IMG/VR virus record: IMGVR_UViG_2681813234_000010
Location: 1 to 16,514 of that record
Reading direction: 5' to 3' (one strand)
Source: a virus
Lineage: Duplodnaviria; Heunggongvirae; Uroviricota; Caudoviricetes
DNA length: 16,514 nt
Shown here piece by piece: positions 1 to 16,514 of this stretch. Numbering within the stretch: the stretch's first letter is position 1; the number at the start of each line of letters is the position of its first letter. The notes beneath the pieces were generated by a model, which saw only the letters and a list, made by a program, of their open reading frames with translations, was not told where the DNA came from and did no database searches. The position numbers and the translations under genes are program-made.

Positions 1-1236
1 TTGGGTGAACATAAACGTTACAATGACGAGGTTATTCATAATGTCTATCCGAAAGTCATAGATGATGATTTGTTTCTCACAGCTAATCGCATGATGGATC
101 GTGTGATGTTGGAGAAGAATAAACCAGCAGAAGACCTGTTACTTGAATCTGATGTGGTGCAAGAGATCTTTCAGCTATATGAAAGTGGGCTTGGCTCAGG
201 TGCTATCGTTAAGCGTTTGCCGAAAGGGTGGAGTACTGTAAATGTACTAAGGGTTTTACGTGACAAAAATGTAGTAACGCAGAAGATTATCGATAACTTA
301 ACTTTTGAGCGTGTGAATCAAAAGTTGTCAATGAATGGTGTAGCCAATCGCATTCGGAAGGATATAACTATTGCACAAGATGATTACATAACTAACTTAT
401 TCCCGAAGATCCTTAAGTGCGGTTATTGTGGTGGTAATGTTGCGATTCACTATAATCATGTTAGAACGAAATATGTGATTTGTCGAAATCGAGAAGAAAG
501 GAAGATCTGTGATGCAAAATCCATACAGTATATTAGAATTGAAAAAAACATACTCAAATGCGTGAAGAATGTAGATTTTCAAAAATTAATGATAGAAAGT
601 ACTGGCAGTGAAACTTCAGTGCTGGATGGTCTGCATGAAGAGCTATCATCATTACGCAGAGAAGAAAATAGTTATAGCGATAAAATAAATGAAAGAAAAT
701 TAGCAGGTAAAAGAGTAGGTATACATCTCAATGATGGGTTAACGGAGGTGCAGGACAGGATTGAAGAAATAGAAAAAGAAATTATCAATGCTCAAACTGT
801 AAGAGAGATACCTAAATTTGATTTTGATATGGATGAAGTACTTGATCCAATGAACATAGAGCTACGAGCGAAAGTGCGAAAACAGCTTAGGTTAGTACTT
901 AAAGCAGTGAAATACTGGATGTTCGATAAGCGTATTTTTATCCAATTGGAATACTTCAATGATGTACTTTCACACATGCTTGTAATTGATAATAAACGTG
1001 GCGGTGGAGATGTAATATATGAAATGTCTATTGAAGAAAGAAAGGGTGAACGAATCTATACAGTTCATGAAAATGGTCATGCAGTTTTCATTGCATCAGT
1101 AACTATCGGCACAGATATATGGTCATTAGCTTTAAGCCGCACACGTACAATTGATACCATTGGCAATTACCTAAGCCTCCTTGCTCGTGAAGGTTTTGAG
1201 ATCTTTGTGAACGAAGATCAAATTGATTGGTTTTAG
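1..1236 (+). CDS. int: Large serine recombinase (phage integrase), C-terminal ~410 codons; the 5' end lies upstream of the window
   Basis: Frame is open from base 1 to TAG at 1234-1236. The translation shows the tail of a recombinase domain, then a four-Cys zinc-ribbon (KCGYCGG ... CRNREERKICD) and a long charged, coiled-coil-like segment. That order is typical of large serine integrases. The catalytic resolvase domain is not in the window. Confidence 0.75.
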   Translation: MGEHKRYNDEVIHNVYPKVIDDDLFLTANRMMDRVMLEKNKPAEDLLLESDVVQEIFQLYESGLGSGAIVKRLPKGWSTVNVLRVLRDKNVVTQKIIDNLTFERVNQKLSMNGVANRIRKDITIAQDDYITNLFPKILKCGYCGGNVAIHYNHVRTKYVICRNREERKICDAKSIQYIRIEKNILKCVKNVDFQKLMIESTGSETSVLDGLHEELSSLRREENSYSDKINERKLAGKRVGIHLNDGLTEVQDRIEEIEKEIINAQTVREIPKFDFDMDEVLDPMNIELRAKVRKQLRLVLKAVKYWMFDKRIFIQLEYFNDVLSHMLVIDNKRGGGDVIYEMSIEERKGERIYTVHENGHAVFIASVTIGTDIWSLALSRTRTIDTIGNYLSLLAREGFEIFVNEDQIDWF

Positions 1237-1316
1237 TATTGTGAGAGTACCTTACTTTCAATAAGTATGAAAATTCTTTGGAGAACGTAGTTTTTACGTT
1301 TTAAACTTTATTTTCA

Positions 1317-1347
1317 CCTCGCAGGAGCGATTCTGCGAGGTTTTTCC
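1317..1347 (+). terminator. Rho-independent terminator downstream of the integrase gene
   Basis: Perfect 8-bp stem CCTCGCAG (1317-1324) / CTGCGAGG (1333-1340) with an 8-nt loop, immediately followed by TTTTT (1341-1345). Confidence 0.6.
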
Positions 1348-1465
1348 ATGTATGGTAATGCAATGAGGTGAGGCGTGGCTTGGGGGGGCGTATAGAGCGT
1401 TACAGGAAGGATTTGCGTTAAGTGTTAGTTTGATGTGCATATCTGAGTATATTTTCCTATTATCT

Positions 1466-1494
1466 TTGACCAGTCCTCGGGAATAATATATAAT
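1466..1494 (+). promoter_or_regulatory. Sigma70-like promoter (TTGACC, 17-bp spacer, TATAAT)
   Basis: -35 TTGACC at 1466-1471 and a consensus -10 TATAAT at 1489-1494 with a 17-bp spacer, about 90 bp upstream of the ORF starting at 1584. Confidence 0.5.
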
Positions 1495-1583
1495 GGCTTC
1501 ACGCCCTTAATAAAGGCTAGGCAGACAAAAGAGATATATAAATCTTTTCGCTACTGCCGATATCAAGTAGGAGCAAATCCAAA

Positions 1584-1940
1584 ATGACACTCAAACATAA
1601 TGAAACACATATTTATTATTCCAATGATTGTGCCGTAGAACAACAAGATAAAGAAATCTGGATCGACCAGAATTTAGTATATAGCTGCTGTAAAGGCGAT
1701 GAAGTAGAGTATACAGAAGGTAATAAGTCGGACTCTCCATTCTATGGTCAAGAGGCTTTACAAACTATGTATTATACTGACCGTGGAAATGTTCAGTATA
1801 ATAATGAAGATGGGAGTTTTTACTTTCGCCTTGATGATGGGAATATGAATACATACATAGATGGACAACTCCAGATTGATGATCCTAACGGTGACTATGT
1901 AGAATTCATTGAGTTCGCAAATAGTGTAATGTCTAAGTAA
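1584..1940 (+). CDS. Hypothetical small, strongly acidic protein (118 aa)
   Basis: ATG at 1584 preceded by AGGAG (1567-1571); ends at TAA 1938-1940. By manual count about 23 Asp/Glu versus 7 Lys/Arg. No recognisable family motif. Confidence 0.55.
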   Translation: MTLKHNETHIYYSNDCAVEQQDKEIWIDQNLVYSCCKGDEVEYTEGNKSDSPFYGQEALQTMYYTDRGNVQYNNEDGSFYFRLDDGNMNTYIDGQLQIDDPNGDYVEFIEFANSVMSK

Positions 1941-1953
1941 GAAAATTTATAAA

Positions 1954-1971
1954 CGAAGGTGCTAACCTTCG
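1954..1971 (+). terminator. Weak hairpin after the 1584-1940 ORF (possible terminator)
   Basis: 7-bp stem CGAAGGT (1954-1960) / ACCTTCG (1965-1971) with a 4-nt loop. No U-tract follows, so terminator function is doubtful. Confidence 0.25.
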
Positions 1972-2040
1972 ACGGTCATCATATATGACCGATTTTAAGT
2001 GAGATACCATAAATACTCCTATAACAGATAGGAGATATTT

Positions 2041-2214
2041 ATGAATTGGATATACAAAATAATCTTTGAAATCATTGCTACGGCAATCTATATGTTCGTA
2101 CTATTTCCATGTTGGATAGTACTGTGCATCTTTTTTATGTTATTAACAGTATTAGCACTACCTTTGAAAATTCCAACCATAAATAAAATGGTTATCAGGT
2201 TTTTGGAACGATAA
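2041..2214 (+). CDS. Small hydrophobic membrane protein (57 aa); not in the supplied ORF track
   Basis: ATG at 2041 preceded by AGGAG (2030-2034) with a 6-nt spacer; TAA at 2212-2214. The translation MNWIYKIIFEIIATAIYMFVLFPCWIVLCIFFMLLTVLALPLKIPTINKMVIRFLER is almost entirely hydrophobic, consistent with 1-2 transmembrane helices. Confidence 0.4.
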   Translation: MNWIYKIIFEIIATAIYMFVLFPCWIVLCIFFMLLTVLALPLKIPTINKMVIRFLER

Positions 2215-2232
2215 AAAATAACATGGTATAAT
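2203..2232 (+). promoter_or_regulatory. Putative extended -10 promoter upstream of the small ribbon-helix-helix-like ORF
   Basis: TG at 2224-2225 followed by TATAAT at 2227-2232; weak -35-like TTGGAA at 2203-2208. Confidence 0.3.
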
Positions 2233-2352
2233 CCATATTATGGTGATCACTACCTCAACGTGATAATTATAATTCCACATCAAAAAGTAATCCCCAACAT
2301 GGGGATCTTTTTGCGTTGAGAAAAAATGGAAAATGTTAAACAAAGGAATGTT

Positions 2353-2505
2353 ATGAAAGAAAAGAAAACTATTAGTGTTGGGGTGAGATTAAGTCCTACA
2401 CAAGAAGAAATACTAAAATCACTTATAGTGTGTGGTAAGGCTACAACGATGAGTTCAGCCATTCAGTATCTGATACAGCAATATGGGATTTTAGATAGTA
2501 AGTAA
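2353..2505 (+). CDS. Small ribbon-helix-helix (CopG/Arc-like) DNA-binding protein (50 aa); not in the supplied ORF track
   Basis: ATG at 2353 with AGGA 5 nt upstream; TAA at 2503-2505. The translation MKEKKTISVGVRLSPTQEEILKSLIVCGKATTMSSAIQYLIQQYGILDSK fits the ribbon-helix-helix pattern: an N-terminal beta-strand (ISVGVRLS) followed by two short helices. Confidence 0.45.
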   Translation: MKEKKTISVGVRLSPTQEEILKSLIVCGKATTMSSAIQYLIQQYGILDSK

Positions 2506-2512
2506 GGGTTTG

Positions 2513-2560
2513 GTACTTTCACTTTAGAAAGGTACTAACAGTACTTCAGGATGAAGTACT
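2513..2560 (+). repeat. Cluster of four GTACT motifs plus a duplicated AGGATGAA just upstream of the HNH/AP2 gene
   Basis: GTACT at 2513, 2532, 2541 and 2556; AGGATGAA occurs twice (about 2549 and 2570). Likely a regulatory binding array or leader. Confidence 0.3.
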
Positions 2561-2578
2561 TAGTTTCAAGGATGAAAT

Positions 2579-3079
2579 ATGAAAAAGGAAAAAAGAAATG
2601 ACCTAAAGGGTCAGGAATTACCACATGTAAAAGAAGCACTACGAGTATGGAATAACTTTCACTCAAGAGTGCGTAATAACATCAATTATAGTACTGTTAC
2701 CATCTGCGATGACTGGTATCGGTTTAGTAATTTTTATTATTGGTATGTTGAAAATGTTGTTGATGGTTGGCATTTAGATAAAGACATATTAGGAGGTAAT
2801 GAGTACAGCCCAAGTAACTGCATCTTTGTACCGAGAGAAGTAAATCAATTGTTCCGTAAAGCACCAACGTCATTATCAACCGGTGTTGTCGTTAATCATA
2901 AGGGCTATCAAGCACAAGCAACATTTGATAAGAAAGTACATAAGTTTGGGACATACCCAACGATAGAAGAAGCTCATGCTGCTTATGTTATTGGGCGTAA
3001 ATCATATATCTATAAACTATCGCAGAAGTATAAAGCATATCCAAAACTTAGTGCGGTACTATTACAAAAATCAAAATAA
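2579..3079 (+). CDS. HNH-type endonuclease-like protein with a C-terminal AP2-like DNA-binding domain
   Basis: ATG at 2579 with AAGGA 6 nt upstream. Residues WHLDKDILGGNEYSPSNCIFVPREVN match an HNH_3-style H...N...N motif. The downstream GYQAQATFDKKVHKFGTYPTIEEAHAAY resembles an AP2 domain, a pairing common in phage homing-endonuclease-like proteins. Confidence 0.55.
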   Translation: MKKEKRNDLKGQELPHVKEALRVWNNFHSRVRNNINYSTVTICDDWYRFSNFYYWYVENVVDGWHLDKDILGGNEYSPSNCIFVPREVNQLFRKAPTSLSTGVVVNHKGYQAQATFDKKVHKFGTYPTIEEAHAAYVIGRKSYIYKLSQKYKAYPKLSAVLLQKSK

Positions 3080-3144
3080 CGAAATGGCCTGAGTACTGGA
3101 AATACTACAGGTCAATATTAACATCTATCATATGGGTATTTATT

Positions 3145-3669
3145 ATGACAAAAAAGAAAGAGCCGCATGAAATAAAGAAACGTGGACGAAAACCAAAAGA
3201 ACACGATAATGCAGAATTACAAGATCATTTAAGGGGAGTACGCCATCTTAATCAACTTACAGATGAAGTACGTAGAGTAATATCAAACTCTGTTAAAAGT
3301 TACTTTGAAAAGAACAATAAACGTAAGACTTTCTCAAACAAGAATATGCTACTTCTGGTTACATCGACTCGATACATCACAGATGAAGCGATAAAGAACA
3401 ATATCGAGTACTTTGATGCCTTCACACTCAATGAGTACGGCGATTCCTCAGTACGAGATTATAAGATGGTCACGATTGCTATATGTGAGGGTCTGAATGC
3501 AATTCTAAGTAGTGGTAAGCCAGTAAGAAGTGATACACCAGAGGGATCACAGTACTTAACTGGTGAAGAAGCATATCAACTACGTATGGCTTTAGATGGT
3601 GGCTGTACTAAGGCAGACCTACTAAAGGTTATAGCTACAATTTATCCCGAATTAAGACATTCTAAGTAG
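3145..3669 (+). CDS. Hypothetical protein with a basic AT-hook-like N-terminus; possible DNA-binding regulator
   Basis: ORF of 174 aa. The N-terminus has KKRGRKPKE (AT-hook-like). The C-terminal LTGEEAYQLRMALDGGCTKADLLKVIATIY loosely resembles a helix-turn-helix of the sigma region-4 type. Function not established. Confidence 0.5.
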   Translation: MTKKKEPHEIKKRGRKPKEHDNAELQDHLRGVRHLNQLTDEVRRVISNSVKSYFEKNNKRKTFSNKNMLLLVTSTRYITDEAIKNNIEYFDAFTLNEYGDSSVRDYKMVTIAICEGLNAILSSGKPVRSDTPEGSQYLTGEEAYQLRMALDGGCTKADLLKVIATIYPELRHSK

Positions 3670-4122
3670 TGTTTTAATAACGGTTCAAATGTCGTAATTA
3701 AGGTTAAATGGGGTTTTTATGGGGTTGATTAGTGCTGCTTGCACTAGATATAGTATCTAAAATGAGTTAAAAAACACTGTATATGGGTTGTCCCGAATTT
3801 CGACACCATAATTAGAAATTATTAAGACCTCTTGTACTACGTCCAAATCGGTCTTTGAGTGCCTACACTCCCTGCGGTCGTATAGTCACTGAAAAACAAA
3901 TTAAACCGATCCTTGCGTTTTTTCTCGCTAGTACTCGAAAAACACGCAGGGGATTTACTCGCTTTCGCTCAGACAGGTAACAGTACTGACTAAACTATTG
4001 GGGTCGGCCTATGGCCTAAAGTTCGCTTCGCTCTTTTTGAAGTATCTACGCGGGCTAAGCCCTTGTTGGGGTTATCGGGCTGTTTAAGCCCTTACTGAAG
4101 TCATCAAATTATCTAACGACAC

Positions 4123-4246
4123 GAAGCAGTACTATCAATTGATTACTTCAAATGAGTTACTAAGTGAGCAGTCGTCTCACTTGCAATACTTATGATCTAT
4201 ATAAATGAAATCTGCAAGTGAGACTCCGGAGAAGTAGTACTATCAA
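4123..4246. repeat. Two 16-bp direct repeats (15/16 identical) bracketing a palindromic site
   Basis: GAAGCAGTACTATCAA at 4123-4138 and GAAGTAGTACTATCAA at 4231-4246. An extra AAGTGAG half-site copy sits at 4162-4168. Confidence 0.6.
4174..4224. repeat. 51-bp site: perfect 12-bp inverted repeat with a 27-bp AT-rich spacer (candidate attP, origin or operator)
   Basis: GTCTCACTTGCA (4174-4185) and its exact reverse complement TGCAAGTGAGAC (4213-4224). The spacer ATACTTATGATCTATATAAATGAAATC contains a GATC and a TATA-like run. Confidence 0.6.
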
Positions 4247-4403
4247 GTCACATATATTTGAGTACTGAATGATTTAGTTAGTCACAGTTGAAATAATTAA
4301 TATATAAAGGTCTACTTATAAATTCTACCGTGACAACCATCTACTATTTCAATCCAGGCCATTATGACTGGGTTTACGGGAAGCGTGAATAAAACTGTCT
4401 CAG

Positions 4404-5138
4404 TCAACTCAATAAAATTTCCATACTTGTGGGTGAAAACATACGATAGCTGATAATGTCACCTACATTGAAATTTGTTTGGAAAAAACTTCTAAGATCT
4501 GTTCCTCCCATGATTCTAGGTACTTTATTAGTGTTTGCCGTTCTGTTAATGATTGCAGTGAGGCTTGTATTGGTGCTGGAGTTAGTTATTTTTATTCTTG
4601 CACCATCTTCTCCAAACTCATGACTGGCAGCCACGGTAACGTTGAAAAATCCTCTTTGCCAATATGTATTAGCCATTCTGAAATTGTAAGTCGGGCTTGA
4701 TTTCTCTGAAGTGACAATTTCTATGTAATCTGTCGTGATTATCTTTTCCTGATAACCATTCCACTCAGGCTGTAGTACTCTAATTATGTCATCTTCTAAT
4801 GCAGCAGCTAGGTTTAAGTGAAATTGACCATAGTGCATTAATCCATTATCGGGTAAAACAAAAATGTCTACCGCTTCATTGTTTTTTAGATGCCTAATAA
4901 TATTCGCGTTGTTTTTTATATTTGTTGATTGAGTAGGGCCTGGCATAGAATAATGATACATTCTACGTTTAAGTAAACGAGTAGTTTTGCCTACATATTT
5001 TACCTGACCATCACAAATGAACGCATAAAGATTATTTTTGACATCTGAGTGAGAAGGTTCAAGTGTAAATTGTAGTTTTTCGCCATTGAGTTCCCAAAAG
5101 CCAATTTTAATAAATCCAATTTCAAGTAATCTATTCAT
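4404..5138 (-). CDS. GIY-YIG nuclease-domain protein with an unrecognised ~110-aa C-terminal domain
   Basis: ORF of 244 aa. Residues LYAFICDGQVKYVGKTTRLLKRRMYHY match the GIY...YIG core with the conserved Arg. Downstream, AAALEDDIIRVLQPEWN matches the conserved Glu and Asn region (compare UvrC ALLLEHNYIKLYQPRYN). The start ATG overlaps the stop of the upstream gene (ATGAATAG on the minus strand). Confidence 0.65.
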   Translation of the reverse strand: MNRLLEIGFIKIGFWELNGEKLQFTLEPSHSDVKNNLYAFICDGQVKYVGKTTRLLKRRMYHYSMPGPTQSTNIKNNANIIRHLKNNEAVDIFVLPDNGLMHYGQFHLNLAAALEDDIIRVLQPEWNGYQEKIITTDYIEIVTSEKSSPTYNFRMANTYWQRGFFNVTVAASHEFGEDGARIKITNSSTNTSLTAIINRTANTNKVPRIMGGTDLRSFFQTNFNVGDIISYRMFSPTSMEILLS

Positions 5139-5877
5139 GTATGACCTTCTTTCGAACTATGAATTTGTCAGTGGGGTAATTATTTGAATAGGTAGAAATA
5201 ATAAACGCTGAAACTTTCCGGTGTGTCTCTGTAACCTGATTCTTAAACTCTAAAAATTCAGCAATAGTTAAATCTTTTGCCTGTCGGTCTGCGTGTATCA
5301 GTGAGTCAACTTCAAAATATGAAGAAAGAAATAAGTTGTATATATTCCCATATTCCCGATTAGTGTCCTTAAGGATATTAATGATAGAGCAACTATAGTT
5401 ACTTAATTCAAAACCATTTCTTGGTATTGTATTTAAACTGTTAATTACTGAATAGGAGAGGTTAGCGAACTCATCCATTAAATTATCTAACTTGTGAACC
5501 TCATTTCTTAGTGATTCGTTGATGGCACAATTGTTATTTAATACGCTGATCGATTGTTTGCCCACTGACCAATATAAATTTCTCAAATGGTGGCTGGCAG
5601 AATTAACTTTTGTTAAATTAGTATAAATCGATTCTTCGATAACATTATGAACCACATCATATTGCTTTTGTGCTAACCATTCAGGTGCTTTTTTATACGC
5701 AGCAATCGCTATACCTAAAGTACCAATTGTAGCTAATGAACTCAACCAATCACTTACGCTTCCCCATTCAAAGCCATTAGAATCAGAAAATAGTACTTTA
5801 ATTAAAGCTAATATCGCTACCCATAGAAGTACTATGACGGTAGCAACTAATAATTTGTTCCATCCTTCAACTTTCAC
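5131..5877 (-). CDS. Membrane protein with two N-terminal transmembrane helices and a ~180-aa soluble domain
   Basis: ORF of 248 aa with a probable GTG start at 5877. Hydrophobic segments LLVATVIVLLWVAILALIKVLF and WLSSLATIGTLGIAIAAY. Its stop overlaps the start of the GIY-YIG gene by 8 nt, implying an operon. Confidence 0.55.
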   Translation of the reverse strand: MKVEGWNKLLVATVIVLLWVAILALIKVLFSDSNGFEWGSVSDWLSSLATIGTLGIAIAAYKKAPEWLAQKQYDVVHNVIEESIYTNLTKVNSASHHLRNLYWSVGKQSISVLNNNCAINESLRNEVHKLDNLMDEFANLSYSVINSLNTIPRNGFELSNYSCSIINILKDTNREYGNIYNLFLSSYFEVDSLIHADRQAKDLTIAEFLEFKNQVTETHRKVSAFIISTYSNNYPTDKFIVRKKVIHE

Positions 5878-6049
5878 TTTCTTAACCCGTAGAATGGTTC
5901 ATGGATGAAAAATTTTACCATTTGCAGTTATGTTTCGTAAATGATCATCGTAGAGTGAAAATTTAACTTAAGTGGAAGTTGCAACTCCATTTGGTGGAGT
6001 TGTACTGGTTGAGATCACGATTTCTTTGAAAAAAACGGGGCTGGTTGCT

Positions 6050-6076
6050 TTGAACTGGTTAACATAGTGGGATAAT
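6050..6076 (+). promoter_or_regulatory. Putative promoter for the HNH / PD-(D/E)xK cassette
   Basis: TTGAAC at 6050-6055, then TG (6068-6069) followed by GATAAT at 6071-6076 (extended -10-like). AGGAG at 6100-6104 precedes the ATG at 6110. Confidence 0.3.
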
Positions 6077-6109
6077 AAGCACCGAAGAAGAACTTCAGCA
6101 GGAGCAGGT

Positions 6110-6838
6110 ATGAACAGAAAGCAATTCATCCAGTCACACGGAGCTACTTGCAGTAACTGGACGTGGAGTTGGTCATTTGTTAACCATGAAAAGAAGATGG
6201 TCATCTTTGGGTCATGGGATGTTGAGAGTGAACAAGAGCGGTCTGTAATACTCCGGGAGAAATGGGAATACAACTCAAACAACAAAAAACAACCGGGATA
6301 CACCCAGGCACTGGAACACATCCGTTTAGCCCATGAAGGCTACGAACTTTACACCTTCAATATGGTTTTCGCAGAACACCCTGAGAATCCTGAAATTGCA
6401 GTAATCAAGGATTTTGAGCGTAAATTAAACAAGCGATATCTTCGTAAAGAAGGTGTTGTTTGGTATGCAGACTTCTTACCTAATCCATTCCCTGATGAAA
6501 TTCCTTCAGGAGAGAGTTTTGTTGAAGGTGCAAAGACTCAAGTAACAGTGAACTACTACGAACGCGATCCAAAGGCCCGACAAGCCTGCATCCAGCATCA
6601 CGGTACTACCTGTAAATGCTGTGGCTTCGATTTTGAGAAGGTCTATGGTACACATGGCCGTGGGTTCATTCATGTACATCACATCAAGCCGCTTCATACG
6701 ATTGGGGAAAACTATGTGGTCAATCCCGTAACAGATATGATCCCATTATGTCCAAACTGCCATGCAATGGTACATCACGGAAGCGAAGTACTTACAATTG
6801 CAGATTTGAAAAAGAAAATGACATTCTGGAGCGAGTAA
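6110..6838 (+). CDS. Zn-finger HNH endonuclease (McrA-like HNH) with an unrecognised ~150-aa N-terminal domain
   Basis: ORF of 242 aa with a good ribosome-binding site. The C-terminus CKCCGFDFEKVYGTHGRGFIHVHHIKPL...DMIPLCPNCHAMVHH is a classic HNH motif with CxxC...CxxCH zinc ligands, as in McrA-type enzymes. The N-terminal domain has no motif I can assign. Confidence 0.7.
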   Translation: MNRKQFIQSHGATCSNWTWSWSFVNHEKKMVIFGSWDVESEQERSVILREKWEYNSNNKKQPGYTQALEHIRLAHEGYELYTFNMVFAEHPENPEIAVIKDFERKLNKRYLRKEGVVWYADFLPNPFPDEIPSGESFVEGAKTQVTVNYYERDPKARQACIQHHGTTCKCCGFDFEKVYGTHGRGFIHVHHIKPLHTIGENYVVNPVTDMIPLCPNCHAMVHHGSEVLTIADLKKKMTFWSE

Positions 6839-7630
6839 ATGGATTTATCACAATTGAGCAACGTCGAATTGATGCAACTGAATCAGTTGACGCTTGATGA
6901 GTTAGAACGACGAGAGGTTATCAGAACCAGAAACAATCCTATCAGTGAGTACACTGAATGGCTGGTTGCGGATAAGATGCAGATGGTACTGGCTGCACCT
7001 AGTACTAAAGGGTATGACGCTACAACAACTGATGATCGAAAAATTCAGATTAAGTCTCGTAAGAATAATTTAAAAAACCAATCATTAATTCTTGGAATTA
7101 TCAGAAATTATGATCTGAACCAATTCGATGAACTCATTGCCGTAATATATAACCATGATTTCTCAATTCGTTATGCCATATCCATACCACATGAATTAGT
7201 GAAGGAATATGGTTTTTATAATGAGCATCAGAATGGGTACACTTTAAGAATAAGCAATTTATTACTTAATGATCCACGTGTAACAGATATCATTGAATTT
7301 ATTGACCCAGACACTGAACGTTCAAAGGAAGATATCACGGTGAAGCCAGATTCAAACACTATCCGGGATGTACAGACAATAGGAATGCAGACGTTTGTTG
7401 AGTACTATCAGTATGTTGAAAGTGGTATGAACACAACTGATCTTGTTGAAAAGATGGTAACTGACCATCCAGAATGGAAGGAAAGTACTGCAAGAACAAA
7501 GGCATCTTCAATGCGAAGAGTATTTAAGAATTGCGACAACGTTGAAGCACTAAAAATCATCTATAAGTCGGATCACCCAGCAATAACGGATGAGATTAAG
7601 AGTAAACTTATGACGCTTTGGGATAAATGA
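6839..7630 (+). CDS. Hypothetical protein with a PD-(D/E)xK-like (Hjc/restriction-endonuclease-fold) motif
   Basis: ATG at 6839 directly abuts the TAA of the HNH gene (TAAATG). EWLVADKMQMVLAAPSTKGYDATTTDDRKIQIKSRK fits an E ... D ... (E/Q)xK nuclease-core pattern. The fold assignment is tentative. Confidence 0.5.
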   Translation: MDLSQLSNVELMQLNQLTLDELERREVIRTRNNPISEYTEWLVADKMQMVLAAPSTKGYDATTTDDRKIQIKSRKNNLKNQSLILGIIRNYDLNQFDELIAVIYNHDFSIRYAISIPHELVKEYGFYNEHQNGYTLRISNLLLNDPRVTDIIEFIDPDTERSKEDITVKPDSNTIRDVQTIGMQTFVEYYQYVESGMNTTDLVEKMVTDHPEWKESTARTKASSMRRVFKNCDNVEALKIIYKSDHPAITDEIKSKLMTLWDK

Positions 7631-7729
7631 ACAAAGTTTTGGTTATATTTTTGACGCAAAAAGATATAATTGTAGTACTTCCACCTTTCGCATTTGGGTA
7701 GGTTTGTTTGGGCGATTGGTGGAAGTGTA

Positions 7730-8041
7730 TCAAAACGGTAATTCTCCCTGCTCACAAAACCATCCATCTTCATCATGCTGCTTATAGACAGAATTCTCAG
7801 TACTCAGATAATGCAAACCTTCCAGTACTGAACTTAGCGGCGTTTCCAGTATGAACACGAAGCAATCACGCTCAATCGTGCCTAACCAGTATGTACCTTG
7901 CTGGTTCTGGAAGAAAACGCGATCCCCATATGAAAACTCATCAAGACTGTATCCCCAATAGCAGACCTTAGCCCATTGGCCTAAATGCTCAAACTGCTGC
8001 ACCCCGCGTTTGATTGCCAGATCAAAACCGTTCTTGCCCAT
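7730..8041 (-). CDS. Hypothetical protein (103 aa) in a GC-richer island
   Basis: ORF with ATG at 8041. Its composition matches the surrounding GC-rich segment rather than the AT-rich backbone. No family motif recognised. Confidence 0.4.
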   Translation of the reverse strand: MGKNGFDLAIKRGVQQFEHLGQWAKVCYWGYSLDEFSYGDRVFFQNQQGTYWLGTIERDCFVFILETPLSSVLEGLHYLSTENSVYKQHDEDGWFCEQGELPF

Positions 8042-8146
8042 ACTATGCCTCTACATTAATACTGGTTATTCATACAGTATTGCATCACATTTCGCACAGA
8101 TCCAGCCATGAAAATACTTACCACTAAAAACGGTAGAAATGTAATT

Positions 8147-8216
8147 ATCGATCATTTTAATTTGATCAATGGTTAAAAATGATCAATTATCAATCAGTTA
8201 TGACAACTGAGAGATC
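8147..8216. promoter_or_regulatory. GATC-rich divergent intergenic region with a repeated TGATCAAT motif
   Basis: Four GATC sites in about 67 bp (8150, 8164, 8181, 8213). TGATCAAT occurs twice (8163-8170 and 8180-8187). The region lies between the divergently oriented 7730-8041 ORF and the EAL-like ORF. Confidence 0.4.
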
Positions 8217-8219
8217 AAC

Positions 8220-8729
8220 ATGAAACTCGAACATTGGGCAATTCCGATCACTTCATTGGACGGTATGTTACTCGGCGTAGAGCTGTAAACCCGTGTACTG
8301 ATAAACGGTTGCCAGGTACTGATGGGGGCAGGAAAAGAAAGTGAATATATCCGTCACGTGGTCTATCAGAACCAGTTAAGAATGATTCAGGGTAAAGCCG
8401 CATGGTTCAAAGAAAAGGGGCTGTTGTGCGTGCTCAGTACTGGCACAGGTACACGCTATGAAGATCTACCATTCATACGGTACATGGCTGCTGAACCACT
8501 GCTAACGAACGGTTACGACTTAGTTCGACTAAATAGACGGTTCACTGAAGAACACATAGAGCGGCTGATCTTCCCGGTACTCATCAATAACATCATGCAG
8601 TACTGCGACAAGGTGATCGTACAAGTCAGCAGCAATCGAAATCACAGGATTTTACGAGAGTCGGGGGTATGGGCAGTACAGGGAGAGTACAGGCCAATCC
8701 GCTTTGAACAATGCGAACAACTTCTATAG
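8220..8729 (+). pseudogene. EAL-like (possibly YdiV-type degenerate EAL) ORF interrupted by a single in-frame TAA
   Basis: ATG at 8220 opens MKLEHWAIPITSLDGMLLGVEL, then TAA at 8286-8288, and the same frame continues open to 8729 (170 codons in total). The N-terminal xPIxxxxGxxxGVEL and C-terminal WAVQGEY patterns resemble EAL-domain ends. The family assignment is tentative. Confidence 0.35.
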
Positions 8730-8739
8730 GGATATAACA

Positions 8740-9012
8740 ATGAAAATACTAATCGTCATGTTGGTAGTACTGCTCACAGGCTGCGGCAGCGTACATCACT
8801 CATTCATGGATAAAGCCTTTGTCGGCAACGTTGATAACAAGGCTACAATAGTACTGTTCGACGCTGGCACACGAAACGGGGTGAAGTACTACCGGCCTCA
8901 GTTCCAGAGTGATTGTGGCCGCACCTACAATCCGATTTACCAGGTGGACAATGGCAGTACTACATGCCATATACGAGAGGAAAGAATTAAAAAAATGCAT
9001 CAATATAGATAA
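8740..9012 (+). CDS. Small lipoprotein (90 aa)
   Basis: ATG at 8740 with AGGGA 8 nt upstream. The N-terminus MKILIVMLVVLLTGCGS has a hydrophobic signal peptide and the lipobox L-T-G-C. It starts 11 nt after the EAL-like ORF stop. Confidence 0.55.
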   Translation: MKILIVMLVVLLTGCGSVHHSFMDKAFVGNVDNKATIVLFDAGTRNGVKYYRPQFQSDCGRTYNPIYQVDNGSTTCHIREERIKKMHQYR

Positions 9013-9092
9013 TAAACAAAAATCAAAGAGATAGAATTATTAAATTATTAAGTGTATGTGGCATGATGAAAAATTAAATAATATATAATACC

Positions 9093-9122
9093 CTCATGCT
9101 GTTATTGATAAAACAGCATGAG
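9093..9122. terminator. Bidirectional hairpin terminator between convergent genes
   Basis: Perfect 11-bp stem CTCATGCTGTT (9093-9103) / AACAGCATGAG (9112-9122) with an 8-nt loop and A/T-rich flanks on both sides. It sits between the lipoprotein gene (+) and the DUF3800 gene (-). Confidence 0.55.
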
Positions 9123-9132
9123 AATATATATT

Positions 9133-10287
9133 TCAACGTAGCATGGCTAATGTTCTGGAAATTCTTATTATATCCTTCTCAATATCATCTAAAACAGGAG
9201 TTGAGTTTCTGCTTCGCTCTGCAATTTCTTGCAAAATATATCTATTTAAATGGTTGTTAACATTTTTAGGGTCAAGGTTTTCTGGTGTGGGAACAACACA
9301 GCACTGCCAATAAAAAATCTCATCTTCAAAATGATTTAGCCATTTAGAATGATATTTTTCTTTCGATTTTTTCTTGTTAAGGACATAAATGCTAGCCGCA
9401 GCTACCACATCCGCAATTTGTATACCATGCGTGACTTTAGAATCAGAAAGAATCATTGGCTCAGATAGCTTAAATGTGATCGGGATTTTTTTATCATGAA
9501 AAGTCTCGAACACAATCTCATCATTGCCTATCATCTCATTGAATGAGTCCTGATGAGTAATTAATGGTTTTGAGCTGTCGCATATAGCTCTCAATGTACC
9601 AAACTTACTACTCATATCGCACAGGAGATTATAAAGAGAAGTCGTTGTCAAATCTAATAACCACTTATCAATCCCAGTACCCTCAAGGCCTTCATATTCT
9701 TCTTCAATTATAGAGATGTTATTCTTGGCGAAATCATGAATGTCCATCATAATTTCAGAATTTTTAGAACCAACAACTGGTTCGATAAAACTATTAACCA
9801 ATATTTTACCTCGTGAAAAATCTTCAAATCGCGAATGTAATAGTTCTGAATATTCATCCTTAGCTATTAAAGAAAAATACATTATATTTGAGATGAATAG
9901 GTGAAATTTAAGGTTGTAAAAAATTGAGCTTTTAGCTGCTAATACTGGCTCAAAAATATATTCGAAGAATTTTCCTGAGAGGGCATATTTTTTTTCGTTT
10001 ACAACCACACGCATACGACCACGGAAATGATTAAGTATTTCATCTACGGCTGGTTGAAATCTCTTGCTATTTACGAGAGTGCTACCTTTTAGCTCTTCGG
10101 CTGCGATCGAGTACTTGTTTATTATATAATCAACAAACTGTTTACTTTCCTCATCATCAGTCACGACTGCTGCGTAACTAAAAAAAGGCTGATCTTTTGA
10201 AAGTAAGTTATTACCAGTGAATCCTGATTCATCGAAATATACATTCTTTACCAATTTGGTCATTCCTTTATGAGCTACAATGTGCAT
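9133..10287 (-). CDS. DUF3800-family protein
   Basis: The N-terminal VYFDESGFTG and C-terminal GIQIADVVAAA match the two conserved DUF3800 signature motifs. The start is uncertain: ATG at 10287, ATG at 10263 or TTG at 10254. None has an ideal ribosome-binding site. Confidence 0.6.
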   Translation of the reverse strand: MHIVAHKGMTKLVKNVYFDESGFTGNNLLSKDQPFFSYAAVVTDDEESKQFVDYIINKYSIAAEELKGSTLVNSKRFQPAVDEILNHFRGRMRVVVNEKKYALSGKFFEYIFEPVLAAKSSIFYNLKFHLFISNIMYFSLIAKDEYSELLHSRFEDFSRGKILVNSFIEPVVGSKNSEIMMDIHDFAKNNISIIEEEYEGLEGTGIDKWLLDLTTTSLYNLLCDMSSKFGTLRAICDSSKPLITHQDSFNEMIGNDEIVFETFHDKKIPITFKLSEPMILSDSKVTHGIQIADVVAAASIYVLNKKKSKEKYHSKWLNHFEDEIFYWQCCVVPTPENLDPKNVNNHLNRYILQEIAERSRNSTPVLDDIEKDIIRISRTLAMLR

Positions 10288-10466
10288 GTGCTATTAATAT
10301 AACATTGTAATAATGCTAATGTAAAATAGAATGTAAGTATTTTTAAGCAAGCTAATTAAGTTAAATTACTAATTAAGGTACTCCGGCAGCCCAGCTTAGA
10401 ACGCGAGTTTTCGGCACCGGATTCTTTAAGTTATGTGTGAAGTTTAGATAGCTTCCCGCACCGCAC

Positions 10467-11030
10467 TTAGCAAAGTACAACACCTATTTCATTTAACGCA
10501 CAATCGCAATGACGGTTTGTCGGACATTCGCATAATTTGAATACTGCATAAGATCCTTTAAGGGTATCGGTTACATACTTGTCCATTTCTTCAACTACAG
10601 ATGATGAGCAATATAAATGAAAACCAACACAGAAAGAATTTCGCATCGGATACTTACATTCTTGTATAGAGTTGAGTTTCAAATGGTCTGCTTGCAATCC
10701 TCTTTTTAAGGCAGATGAACGCTTAGTACATTTCAGCTCAATAAAGATATAGTCTTCAAAAAGGGTATCTTTTTCTCTCATTATTATATCGATTTTTGAG
10801 AGCTTGCTTGCAGGGAAATTATTAGGGTCAAGAAAAGCTGTAACTTCACGTTTAACTTCATATTTTCTTTTTTTGTTAAGGAAGTGCTCAAATTCAATTT
10901 GTAGCCATTTTTCCCAATCATTAGTTTCATTACTGACGAAGGAATACAGACGCCTCTTTATATCTTCATTCTTTAGGAAGCTATTCAGTAACTTTACCAG
11001 TAAAGAAAAATCATTGTTGCGGTCTGACAT
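10467..11030 (-). CDS. Hypothetical Cys-rich protein with a possible PD-(D/E)xK-like core
   Basis: ORF of 187 aa. KIDIIMREKDTLFEDYIFIELKCTK fits a D ... ExK pattern. The C-terminus contains a Cys/His cluster (CVGFHLYC ... CEC ... HCDC), suggesting metal binding. Confidence 0.5.
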   Translation of the reverse strand: MSDRNNDFSLLVKLLNSFLKNEDIKRRLYSFVSNETNDWEKWLQIEFEHFLNKKRKYEVKREVTAFLDPNNFPASKLSKIDIIMREKDTLFEDYIFIELKCTKRSSALKRGLQADHLKLNSIQECKYPMRNSFCVGFHLYCSSSVVEEMDKYVTDTLKGSYAVFKLCECPTNRHCDCALNEIGVVLC

Positions 11031-11044
11031 AGTGATCTCAATAA

Positions 11045-13412
<2,368 letters not shown>

Positions 13413-13415
13413 TAA

Positions 13416-16514
<3,099 letters not shown>

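Follow-up and report, generated by a model that had tools for sequence, protein, structure and literature searches.

An integrase-to-terminase block rich in orphan nucleases as a probable multi-slot hotspot for defence and other cargo genes in an enterobacterial prophage lineage

Background

A defence hotspot close to cos is known from P2-like phages and P4-like satellites (Rousset et al. 2022, PMC9122126); it includes old and tin, and hundreds of alternative arrangements of it exist. Here we describe a comparable block of genes in the virus record IMGVR_UViG_2681813234_000010, of which a 16.5-kb stretch (positions 1 to 16,514, GC content ~ 37%; referred to as the window) was analysed. The block lies between a serine integrase and the terminase genes and is probably a multi-slot hotspot for defence genes and other cargo of a prophage, the load in the window being dominated by orphan nucleases that would protect the lysogen. 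As in P2 and P4, the variable locus is situated directly upstream of the packaging genes, has conserved flanks with many alternatives between them, and counts OLD-family and many other known defence genes among those alternatives. Unlike the P2/P4 hotspot, it belongs to an unrelated lineage with a lambda-type GpA terminase and portal and a serine integrase, has scaffold genes interspersed between its slots, of which there are at least two, adjoins the integrase, and offers a candidate cos only.

Individual genes of the block also have described counterparts. BisI-family enzymes are orphan endonucleases dependent on 5-methylcytosine or 5-hydroxymethylcytosine (5mC/5hmC), their hallmark being that GCNGC is cut only when multiply modified in this way. 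One member, Eco15I, has a C-terminal domain of unknown function (Eco15I paper). For the DUF3800 domain, published analyses predict an RNase H-like fold and describe DE and QxxD motifs, and 11 RNA motifs adjoining DUF3800 genes have been reported by Weinberg et al.

Prophage hotspots are a productive source of new immune genes. The general principle is already established by P2; what is new is an example in a lineage without a sequenced isolate, together with a catalogue of its alternatives and a set of candidate genes.

Results

Gene content of the block

The following genes delimit the block and make up its nuclease-like content:

1-1236, plus strand: large serine recombinase (integrase), C-terminal 411 aa; Pfam Recombinase and Zn_ribbon_recom; left boundary
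2579-3079, plus strand: HNH-like/AP2-like protein; PHROG 953 'HNH endonuclease', 1.5e-38
4404-5138, minus strand: orphan GIY-YIG nuclease carrying a B3-like DNA-binding pseudobarrel at its C-terminus (GIY-B3); PHROG 'endonuclease', 6e-12
6110-6838, plus strand: SRA-like and HNH endonuclease, Type IV-like (HNH6110); Pfam HNH, 4.5e-6, above the gathering threshold
6839-7630, plus strand: BisI-family endonuclease; Pfam DUF6998 above gathering; PADLOC mREase_II, 1.3e-62
9133-10287, minus strand: stand-alone DUF3800 protein, predicted RNase H-like; Pfam DUF3800, 3.3e-9
10467-11030, minus strand: PD-(D/E)xK-like protein (o10467) recognised by a conserved motif, with a C-terminal CxC..CxC cluster; adjoins TerS
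11069-11617, plus strand: small terminase subunit (TerS), Nu1-like (Pfam); right boundary, conserved backbone
11523-13412, plus strand: large terminase subunit (TerL), GpA family (Pfam); right boundary, conserved backbone
13955-15463: portal protein, lambda family; lambda-type packaging/head module

Approximately 14 open reading frames (ORFs) lie between the recombinase and TerS genes, with six changes of coding strand from 1584 to 11069. An earlier reading of the DNA letters, referred to below as the original prediction, had described the block as unusually dense in nuclease-like genes with several changes of transcription direction, and had seen in it either a defence or counter-defence hotspot or a nest of homing endonucleases rather than core phage functions. 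All six genes that it named are located where it put them, and four of the six calls are solid. Over the 9.5 kb, four to six of the ~ 14 genes have a nuclease fold, a density that is high by inspection. A scan with NCBIfam added nothing.

Comparison with related loci

A TerL search identified relatives in 62 IMG/VR contigs. In 58 loci sharing the terminase, ORFs were called over the ~ 11 kb preceding TerS (related loci bear L-numbers below) and then clustered, which resulted in 612 ORFs falling into 198 families, 112 of them confined to a single locus. By tblastn, TerS, TerL, a 176-aa protein and the portal were found wherever a contig reaches them, whereas the genes of the block proved sporadic: the GIY-B3 gene was present in no other locus, HNH6110 in 10, the BisI-family gene in 6 and the DUF3800 gene in 8. 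Relatives with 87–96% identical TerL lack the confirmed nucleases of the window. The comparison thus separated conserved packaging genes from a variable block, and none of the confirmed nucleases behaved as part of a conserved core carried in the same order by related phages.

Within the block, order and orientation of a thin scaffold are constant: recombinase, o2041, o2326, an HNH-type gene, slot A, the o7730/o8322 pair, a lipoprotein gene, slot B, a DNA motif, an optional o10467, and TerS. Slot A extends from the HNH-type gene to o7730 and includes copies of a membrane protein family designated TM, while slot B extends from the terminator of the lipoprotein gene to the conserved motif upstream of TerS. 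The corresponding features of the window are as follows:

2041-2214, plus strand: small protein with two transmembrane helices (o2041); homologs likewise placed after the recombinase in many relatives
2326-2505, plus strand: small protein, ribbon-helix-helix-like by eye (o2326); homologs likewise placed after the recombinase in many relatives
3995-6109: cassette differing from the closest relative, AREA_C483 (blastn)
5131-5877, minus strand: 'TM' family membrane protein, overlapping the start of the GIY-B3 gene by 8 nt
7730-8729: divergent scaffold pair, o7730 (minus strand) and o8322 (plus strand), with a 280-bp intergenic region
8740-9012, plus strand: lipoprotein with lipobox LTGC, weakly Cor-like; PHROG 1119 'Cor superinfection exclusion', E = 0.0038, and phrog_1754
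9088-9127: bidirectional terminator hairpin with a 16-bp stem between the convergent lipoprotein and DUF3800 genes; left edge of slot B
10377-10415, plus strand: bipartite DNA motif GGTACTCC-N23-GCGAGTTTTCGGC, in 15 loci; right edge of variable DNA

When 89 representatives of cargo families were scanned with PADLOC and Pfam, known defence genes were found to occupy the same slots in relatives, namely Old (4e-75; Pfam AAA_15 and TOPRIM), PDC-S29 (1.8e-88), JukA (1.3e-70) and UzuA (1e-51). PDC-S31 and a Type II methyltransferase were also detected, as were a PLD-like domain and DUF2971, and mREase II/IV likewise count among the known defence systems. Slot B, for instance, is occupied by OLD in L030, L054 and Escherichia coli STEC384, and by PDC-S29 in L006 and L008. 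Together with the sporadic distribution of block genes, this supports the defence-hotspot part of the original prediction.

In ten relatives (L064, L030 and L003 among them), the integrase gene is directly followed by genes for a DEAD-like helicase of 650–1026 aa and then a T5orf172 (GIY-YIG-related) protein, and eleven others have an unannotated ~ 470-aa protein at this point; neither the helicase/T5orf172 genes nor the ~ 470-aa gene is present in the window. These could be alternative replication or defence modules.

Two putative modification-dependent enzymes

The Zn-finger HNH protein is the first of two adjoining nucleases. In a profile search against the Protein Data Bank (PDB), the 6110-6838 product matched EcoKMcrA (5.5e-9), and a Cys4 zinc finger and the HH..N..H residues of the HNH beta-beta-alpha-metal fold were invariant across 66 homologs. 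Its top full-length structural match was TagI, and its N-terminal domain matched SRA readers. The protein is an HNH enzyme whose N-domain appears SRA-like, in the build of TagI and McrA; like TagI, ScoA3IV and EcoKMcrA it has a C-terminal Cys4 zinc-finger HNH, which is closest to that of EcoKMcrA. Judged by these homologies, it is probably modification-dependent.

By homology, the neighbouring 6839-7630 product belongs to the BisI family, a PD-QxK variant of PD-(D/E)xK, which confirms one of two PD-(D/E)xK-like calls made earlier. Its residues 3–155 are homologous to Eco15I (3e-34) and to NhoI (2e-19 against PDB), with E40, D60 and Q70-I-K72 aligning with the QIK site of Eco15I. As in Eco15I and the BisI family, residues 1–155 align over the full catalytic domain with its E/D/QIK site, the enzyme is an orphan, and there is an extra C-terminal domain, here spanning residues 156–263 (~ 105 aa) and without a match in any library scanned. 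Unlike Eco15I, to which it is ~ 50% identical, the window enzyme is prophage-borne and shares a putative operon with an SRA-HNH gene.

In L058 and L069, the closest relatives, an IS3 element with a group II intron (ltrA) is inserted in the 3' end of the BisI-like gene at a site equivalent to window 7618-7623, altering the C-terminus of the product (286 aa versus 263 aa).

The HNH and BisI genes abut (TGA then ATG) and are probably co-transcribed. They travel together in several elements, including, at 84% identity, an unrelated tyrosine-integrase island adjoining ffs in nine E. coli genomes. An obligate two-gene system was considered and rejected: L004 and L063 have the HNH gene only, L012 and L066 the BisI gene only, and distant HNH homologs have no DUF6998 neighbour. 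These distant homologs are solitary, located beside Gabija and GmrSD in Pseudomonas putida and beside an Abi_2 fragment in Edwardsiella. No methyltransferase was detected by library scans among the proteins of the block, or adjoining the HNH homologs. Membership of two families of orphan modification-dependent restriction enzymes supports a defence role. If both stacked enzymes target cytosine-modified DNA, as is probable, they would counter phages hiding behind 5mC/5hmC.

A GIY-YIG nuclease with a B3-like domain

The GIY-YIG call for 4404-5138 held up by three approaches. The protein matched T4 EndoII in a profile search against PDB (4.8e-6), followed by Hpy188I and UvrC; its AlphaFold2 (AF2) model (pLDDT 86.6) aligned with EndoII in Foldseek with a TM score of 0.71–0.73; and Y38, Y48, R59, E115 and N127, the residues expected of the GIY-YIG superfamily, were invariant in 62 homologs. 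Pfam GIY-YIG itself matched only at E = 0.027, below the gathering threshold. The C-domain (residues ~ 150–244) matched the N-domain of HpLlaJI.R1 (6c5d, 7.6e-5), plant B3 domains (VRN1, VAL1 and FUS3; 1e-3 to 5e-3, TMt 0.6–0.68) and BfiI-C (3zi5), in agreement with a B3-like pseudobarrel fold. Like T4 endonuclease II (DenA), Hpy188I and Eco29kI, the protein thus has a GIY-YIG fold and its catalytic residues, EndoII being the best match by profile and by structure; unlike these, it is fused to a B3-like barrel such as those of BfiI, EcoRII and LlaJI.R1. No description of a GIY-YIG and B3 fusion was found in the literature searched. Should it prove to act in defence, GIY-B3 would be a new architecture of methyltransferase-less restriction enzyme, directed by sequence or by modification.

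More than 680 homologs of GIY-B3 were retrieved. Elsewhere the gene is often solitary among chromosomal housekeeping genes or, in a Salmonella prophage, lies at the moron end. In the five contexts examined it had no methyltransferase neighbour, which speaks against a part in a Type II restriction-modification system.

In the window, the GIY-B3 gene is part of a cassette. The 98.7% blastn identity to the prophage of E. coli AREA_C483 ends at 3994 and restarts exactly at the HNH start codon, 6110; in place of 3995-6109, AREA_C483 has a 289-aa gene and a different TM-family allele. A larger cassette of 3.7 kb comprising the GIY, TM, HNH and BisI genes (4238-7944) recurs at 89% identity in a Buttiauxella element, where the 8-nt overlap of the GIY-B3 and TM genes is also present. 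Since the HNH, BisI-family and GIY-B3 genes each occur alone as well, they are best seen as single-gene modules accumulated side by side. An obligate pairing of TM with GIY was likewise rejected, because GIY homologs are solitary elsewhere and TM genes occur without GIY in 34 loci.

The 734 bp at 3670-4403 contain no ORF of 50 aa or more and had no match in Rfam; they include the 3994 breakpoint, and their part from 4238 to 4403 belongs to the cassette common to the window and Buttiauxella.

The stand-alone DUF3800 gene

The DUF3800 assignment of 9133-10287 is also secure, with 38 bits against a Pfam cut-off of 21, the DE motif (FDESG) at residue 18 and the QxxD motif (QIAD) at residue 290. 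The gene occupies the TerS-proximal slot B, and its cassette (8869-10449) is found at 87% identity in another prophage, that of E. coli G3/10. The Pfam domain and both motifs are shared with the DUF3800 proteins linked to the type VII retron and to Cas12a2. Unlike those, the window protein has no reverse transcriptase, CRISPR or TPR domain with it. None of the 11 Rfam DUF3800 RNA motifs (I to XI) lies nearby, as no match was obtained in the window at E <= 1, and the 179-nt flank upstream of the gene folds no better than shuffled sequences.

A GCCGAAAAC..GGAGTACC element upstream of the gene was examined as a possible DUF3800-linked element and rejected: it belongs to the phage backbone, because its distance from TerS is fixed in loci without DUF3800. 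A collection scan with the GCCGAAAAC..GGAGTACC pattern returned mostly chance matches.

Discussion

How the block would work

The host of the block would be a temperate phage of Enterobacteriaceae whose prophage gene order runs attL, serine integrase, an ~ 8–10-kb early/cargo region, TerS/TerL, structural genes, lysis genes and attR. Cassettes would be swapped by recombination into at least two variable slots of the fixed-order scaffold, those of the window being filled with orphan nucleases lacking a methyltransferase partner and accompanied by a Cor-like lipoprotein. We infer that a lysogen expresses the cargo genes of its prophage. The SRA-HNH and BisI-like enzymes would then cut incoming 5mC/5hmC DNA and spare unmodified host DNA, GIY-B3 would cut DNA bound by its B3 domain, the host being somehow spared, and the DUF3800 protein would act as a nuclease on some nucleic acid. 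By these activities the lysogen, and hence the prophage, would be shielded from superinfecting phages.

Several observations weigh against a defence hotspot of this kind. PADLOC matched only two genes of the window, and the GIY-B3, DUF3800, TM and o10467 proteins are at most candidates for a defence role. The solitary GIY-B3 homologs among housekeeping genes would also suit a cellular role. Some SRA-HNH enzymes, among them ScoA3IV, attack DNA methylated by Dcm. Because E. coli nevertheless harbours a copy 95% identical to the HNH protein, the specificity of this protein must differ or be controlled; it may be specific for hmC or for a particular spacing of sites. The cargo of relatives includes Hcp, DUF1493, the STM2901 family, a Tlde1 domain (type VI secretion-related) and the 8xMP/RipA octameric membrane protein (L071, the G3/10 prophage; L005; L035; L018), and the presence of Hcp and Tlde1 makes the region a general cargo hotspot, not a purely defensive one. 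Lastly, the ORF calling and clustering behind the counts over the 58 loci were heuristic, and many of the loci are truncated.

Alternative explanations

Some genes of the block may well serve the phage itself, and the question is whether the nucleases do so too, in degradation of host DNA (as T4 EndoII does), recombination, replication or packaging. The gene order of the whole element in E. coli STEC384 (~ 32 kb, in which nine hypothetical genes and then OLD separate the recombinase from TerS/TerL, with structural genes, the lysin gene and four small genes beyond) identifies the integrase-to-TerS block as the phage's only non-structural region, its scaffold is conserved, and the GIY domain of GIY-B3 is nearest to T4 EndoII. 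A further point in favour is o10467 (~ 180 aa), which adjoins TerS in 26 of the 58 loci. It had no Pfam, PHROG or PDB match in sequence and profile searches, and an exhaustive HMMER search yielded 194 representative relatives. Across 127 family members (16–65% identity), E46 was invariant, E40, D81, E98, K100 and D115 were kept in at least 90%, giving an E...D...(D/E)xK motif, and three members had weak TnsA-like_N or REase_MTES_1575 matches. On this conservation o10467 is a probable PD-(D/E)xK-type nuclease, so the second of the two earlier PD-(D/E)xK-like calls stands as probable only. Both o10467 and the scaffold genes may well have phage functions. For the confirmed nucleases core functions are unlikely, as each is found in no more than 10 of the 58 relatives, also occurs outside phages, and is absent from relatives with closely similar TerL. 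The contention that the block is something other than core is only partly right: it suits the sporadic nucleases and less so the semi-conserved, fixed-order scaffold.

A nest of homing endonucleases, in which the HNH and GIY-YIG genes would be selfish, free-standing elements spread by cutting relatives that lack them, would account for the presence/absence polymorphism among relatives. The position after the integrase is indeed taken in 18 relatives by a classic HNH_3 and NUMOD4 protein, and the 2579-3079 product, which holds the same position in the window, matches PHROG families of phage HNH endonucleases. The latter, the one protein here built like a homing enzyme, is, however, the least secure of the six nuclease calls, being backed by PHROG families only: it had no Pfam match, including HNH_3 and AP2, even at E <= 5, its sole AP2 signal was a weak match to WRI1 (E = 0.64), and no invariant histidine was found among nine family members. 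The family motif is LDKDIL..YSP.NC.YVP.EVN, with DKD where the canonical HNH_3 proteins of relatives have DH(I)D, and the His-less AP2-like form was found in 10 loci. Its similarities suggest that the protein is HNH-like in ancestry and probably not an active HNH nuclease. As to the two other genes, GIY-B3 is part of a replaced cassette rather than a precise insertion, its family is solitary amid chromosomal housekeeping genes and has a restriction-enzyme-type B3 domain, and HNH6110 has a putative SRA-like reader and an HNH of McrA/TagI type, with homologs in defence islands. Homing fits the HNH_3 and NUMOD4 genes of the relatives, not the active-site-intact nucleases of the window, and as an account of the block it is quite improbable.

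Slightly less credit is due to the view that the nucleases are counter-defence factors or inter-phage weapons used in lytic growth, for example to destroy the DNA of competing prophages or satellites. The nucleases could act on competitor DNA, and their position by the packaging genes would allow them to be expressed late. However, no similarity to known anti-defence proteins turned up, although no dedicated anti-defence library was searched, and the minus-strand genes, with promoter-like sites and terminators of their own, look like independently expressed morons.

Least plausible is an accumulation of passenger DNA with no current function in a decaying prophage. In its favour, the E. coli copies are full of insertion sequence (IS) elements and have a group II intron and a broken TerL, but all ORFs of the window are intact with conserved catalytic residues and the IMG/VR relatives, at 30–38 kb, have intact packaging genes.

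With the hotspot of defence and other cargo as the probable explanation, the lineage offers, in Escherichia, Scandinavium, Buttiauxella, Pluralibacter, Enterobacter and Pseudescherichia, two well-delimited slots with ~ 200 alternative families, mostly unannotated. Three candidate defence genes emerge from the window: GIY-B3, the stand-alone DUF3800 gene and the o10467 family. It is conceivable, although we would put it forward as a tentative suggestion, that at least one of them represents a new single-gene anti-phage defence family.

Other genes and sites of the block

The o7730 and o8322 genes, present in 29 and 31 of the 58 loci, encode proteins without a known domain. In the Buttiauxella relative L076, their position is held by a CI/Cro-like pair consisting of a CI-like (HTH_3 and S24) and an HTH_35 protein, and repeated ATTATCGATCA / TGATCAAT-like motifs are found at 8143-8225, in the spacer between the two genes of the window. 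By this analogy o7730/o8322 are a candidate immunity switch, and the block probably contains the immunity switch of the phage. The lipoprotein gene was present in 24 of the 58 loci, and its product may, by a weak sequence resemblance, block adsorption as Cor does. The o2041 and o2326 proteins had no profile match; a role for them can be suggested only from the two predicted transmembrane helices of one and the apparent ribbon-helix-helix form of the other.

The TM family was found in 35 of the 58 loci as one to three tandem, diverged copies, invariably in the orientation seen in the window and to the left of o7730. It had no match above threshold and no annotation in any library scanned. Its members are ~ 180–270 aa long; a pair of N-terminal transmembrane helices is conserved among them, and the C-termini vary. 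Such a pattern is reminiscent of a diversifying array of exclusion or immunity genes.

The right edge of the variable DNA is sharp. A AAGGTACTCC-N23(variable)-GCGAGTTTTCGGCACCG sequence, at about 10375-10420 (plus strand) in the window, is also present in L003, L005, L019, L035, L042, L043, L045, L047, L058, L066, L069 and L071, with no homology among loci to the left of it. The bipartite motif is located 152 bp upstream of TerS where o10467 is absent and ~ 700 bp upstream where it is present; in loci without o10467, it is followed by a strong hairpin and T-run just before TerS. Its occurrence is independent of DUF3800. The motif could represent cos, a site bound by terminase or part of a late promoter.

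GC content was 0.33–0.35 in the GIY, TM, DUF3800 and o10467 genes, 0.43 in the HNH gene, and 0.45–0.47 in o7730, o8322 and the lipoprotein gene. The hosts of this prophage lineage have a GC content of about 50–55%.

The prophage lineage

Isolated phages gave no match to the window in megablast, TerL was at most 35% identical to that of any isolated phage, and an exact-protein look-up of TerL returned no record. Beyond Escherichia, related prophages were found in Scandinavium, Buttiauxella, Pluralibacter, Enterobacter and Pseudescherichia. The integration sites of the lineage are not mentioned in the E. coli defence-island paper. The Prokaryotic Genome Annotation Pipeline (PGAP) annotated neither a replication gene nor a repressor gene in the STEC384 element, and the lineage may be one of uncharacterised low-GC enterobacterial temperate phages without a recognisable replication module.

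The copy in E. coli AREA_C483 is 97.7% identical to the window, IS-riddled and situated between yeaG and mipA. The window integrase is 99% identical to a 644-aa recombinase located at the very left end of that prophage. The relatives in E. coli G3/10 and STEC384 interrupt ybhA and yegD. As a whole, the uncharacterised lineage consists of prophages of ~ 30–38 kb and ~ 37% GC whose serine integrase places them within host ORFs (yegD, ybhA), with L069, L071 and L206 (STEC384) as further members.

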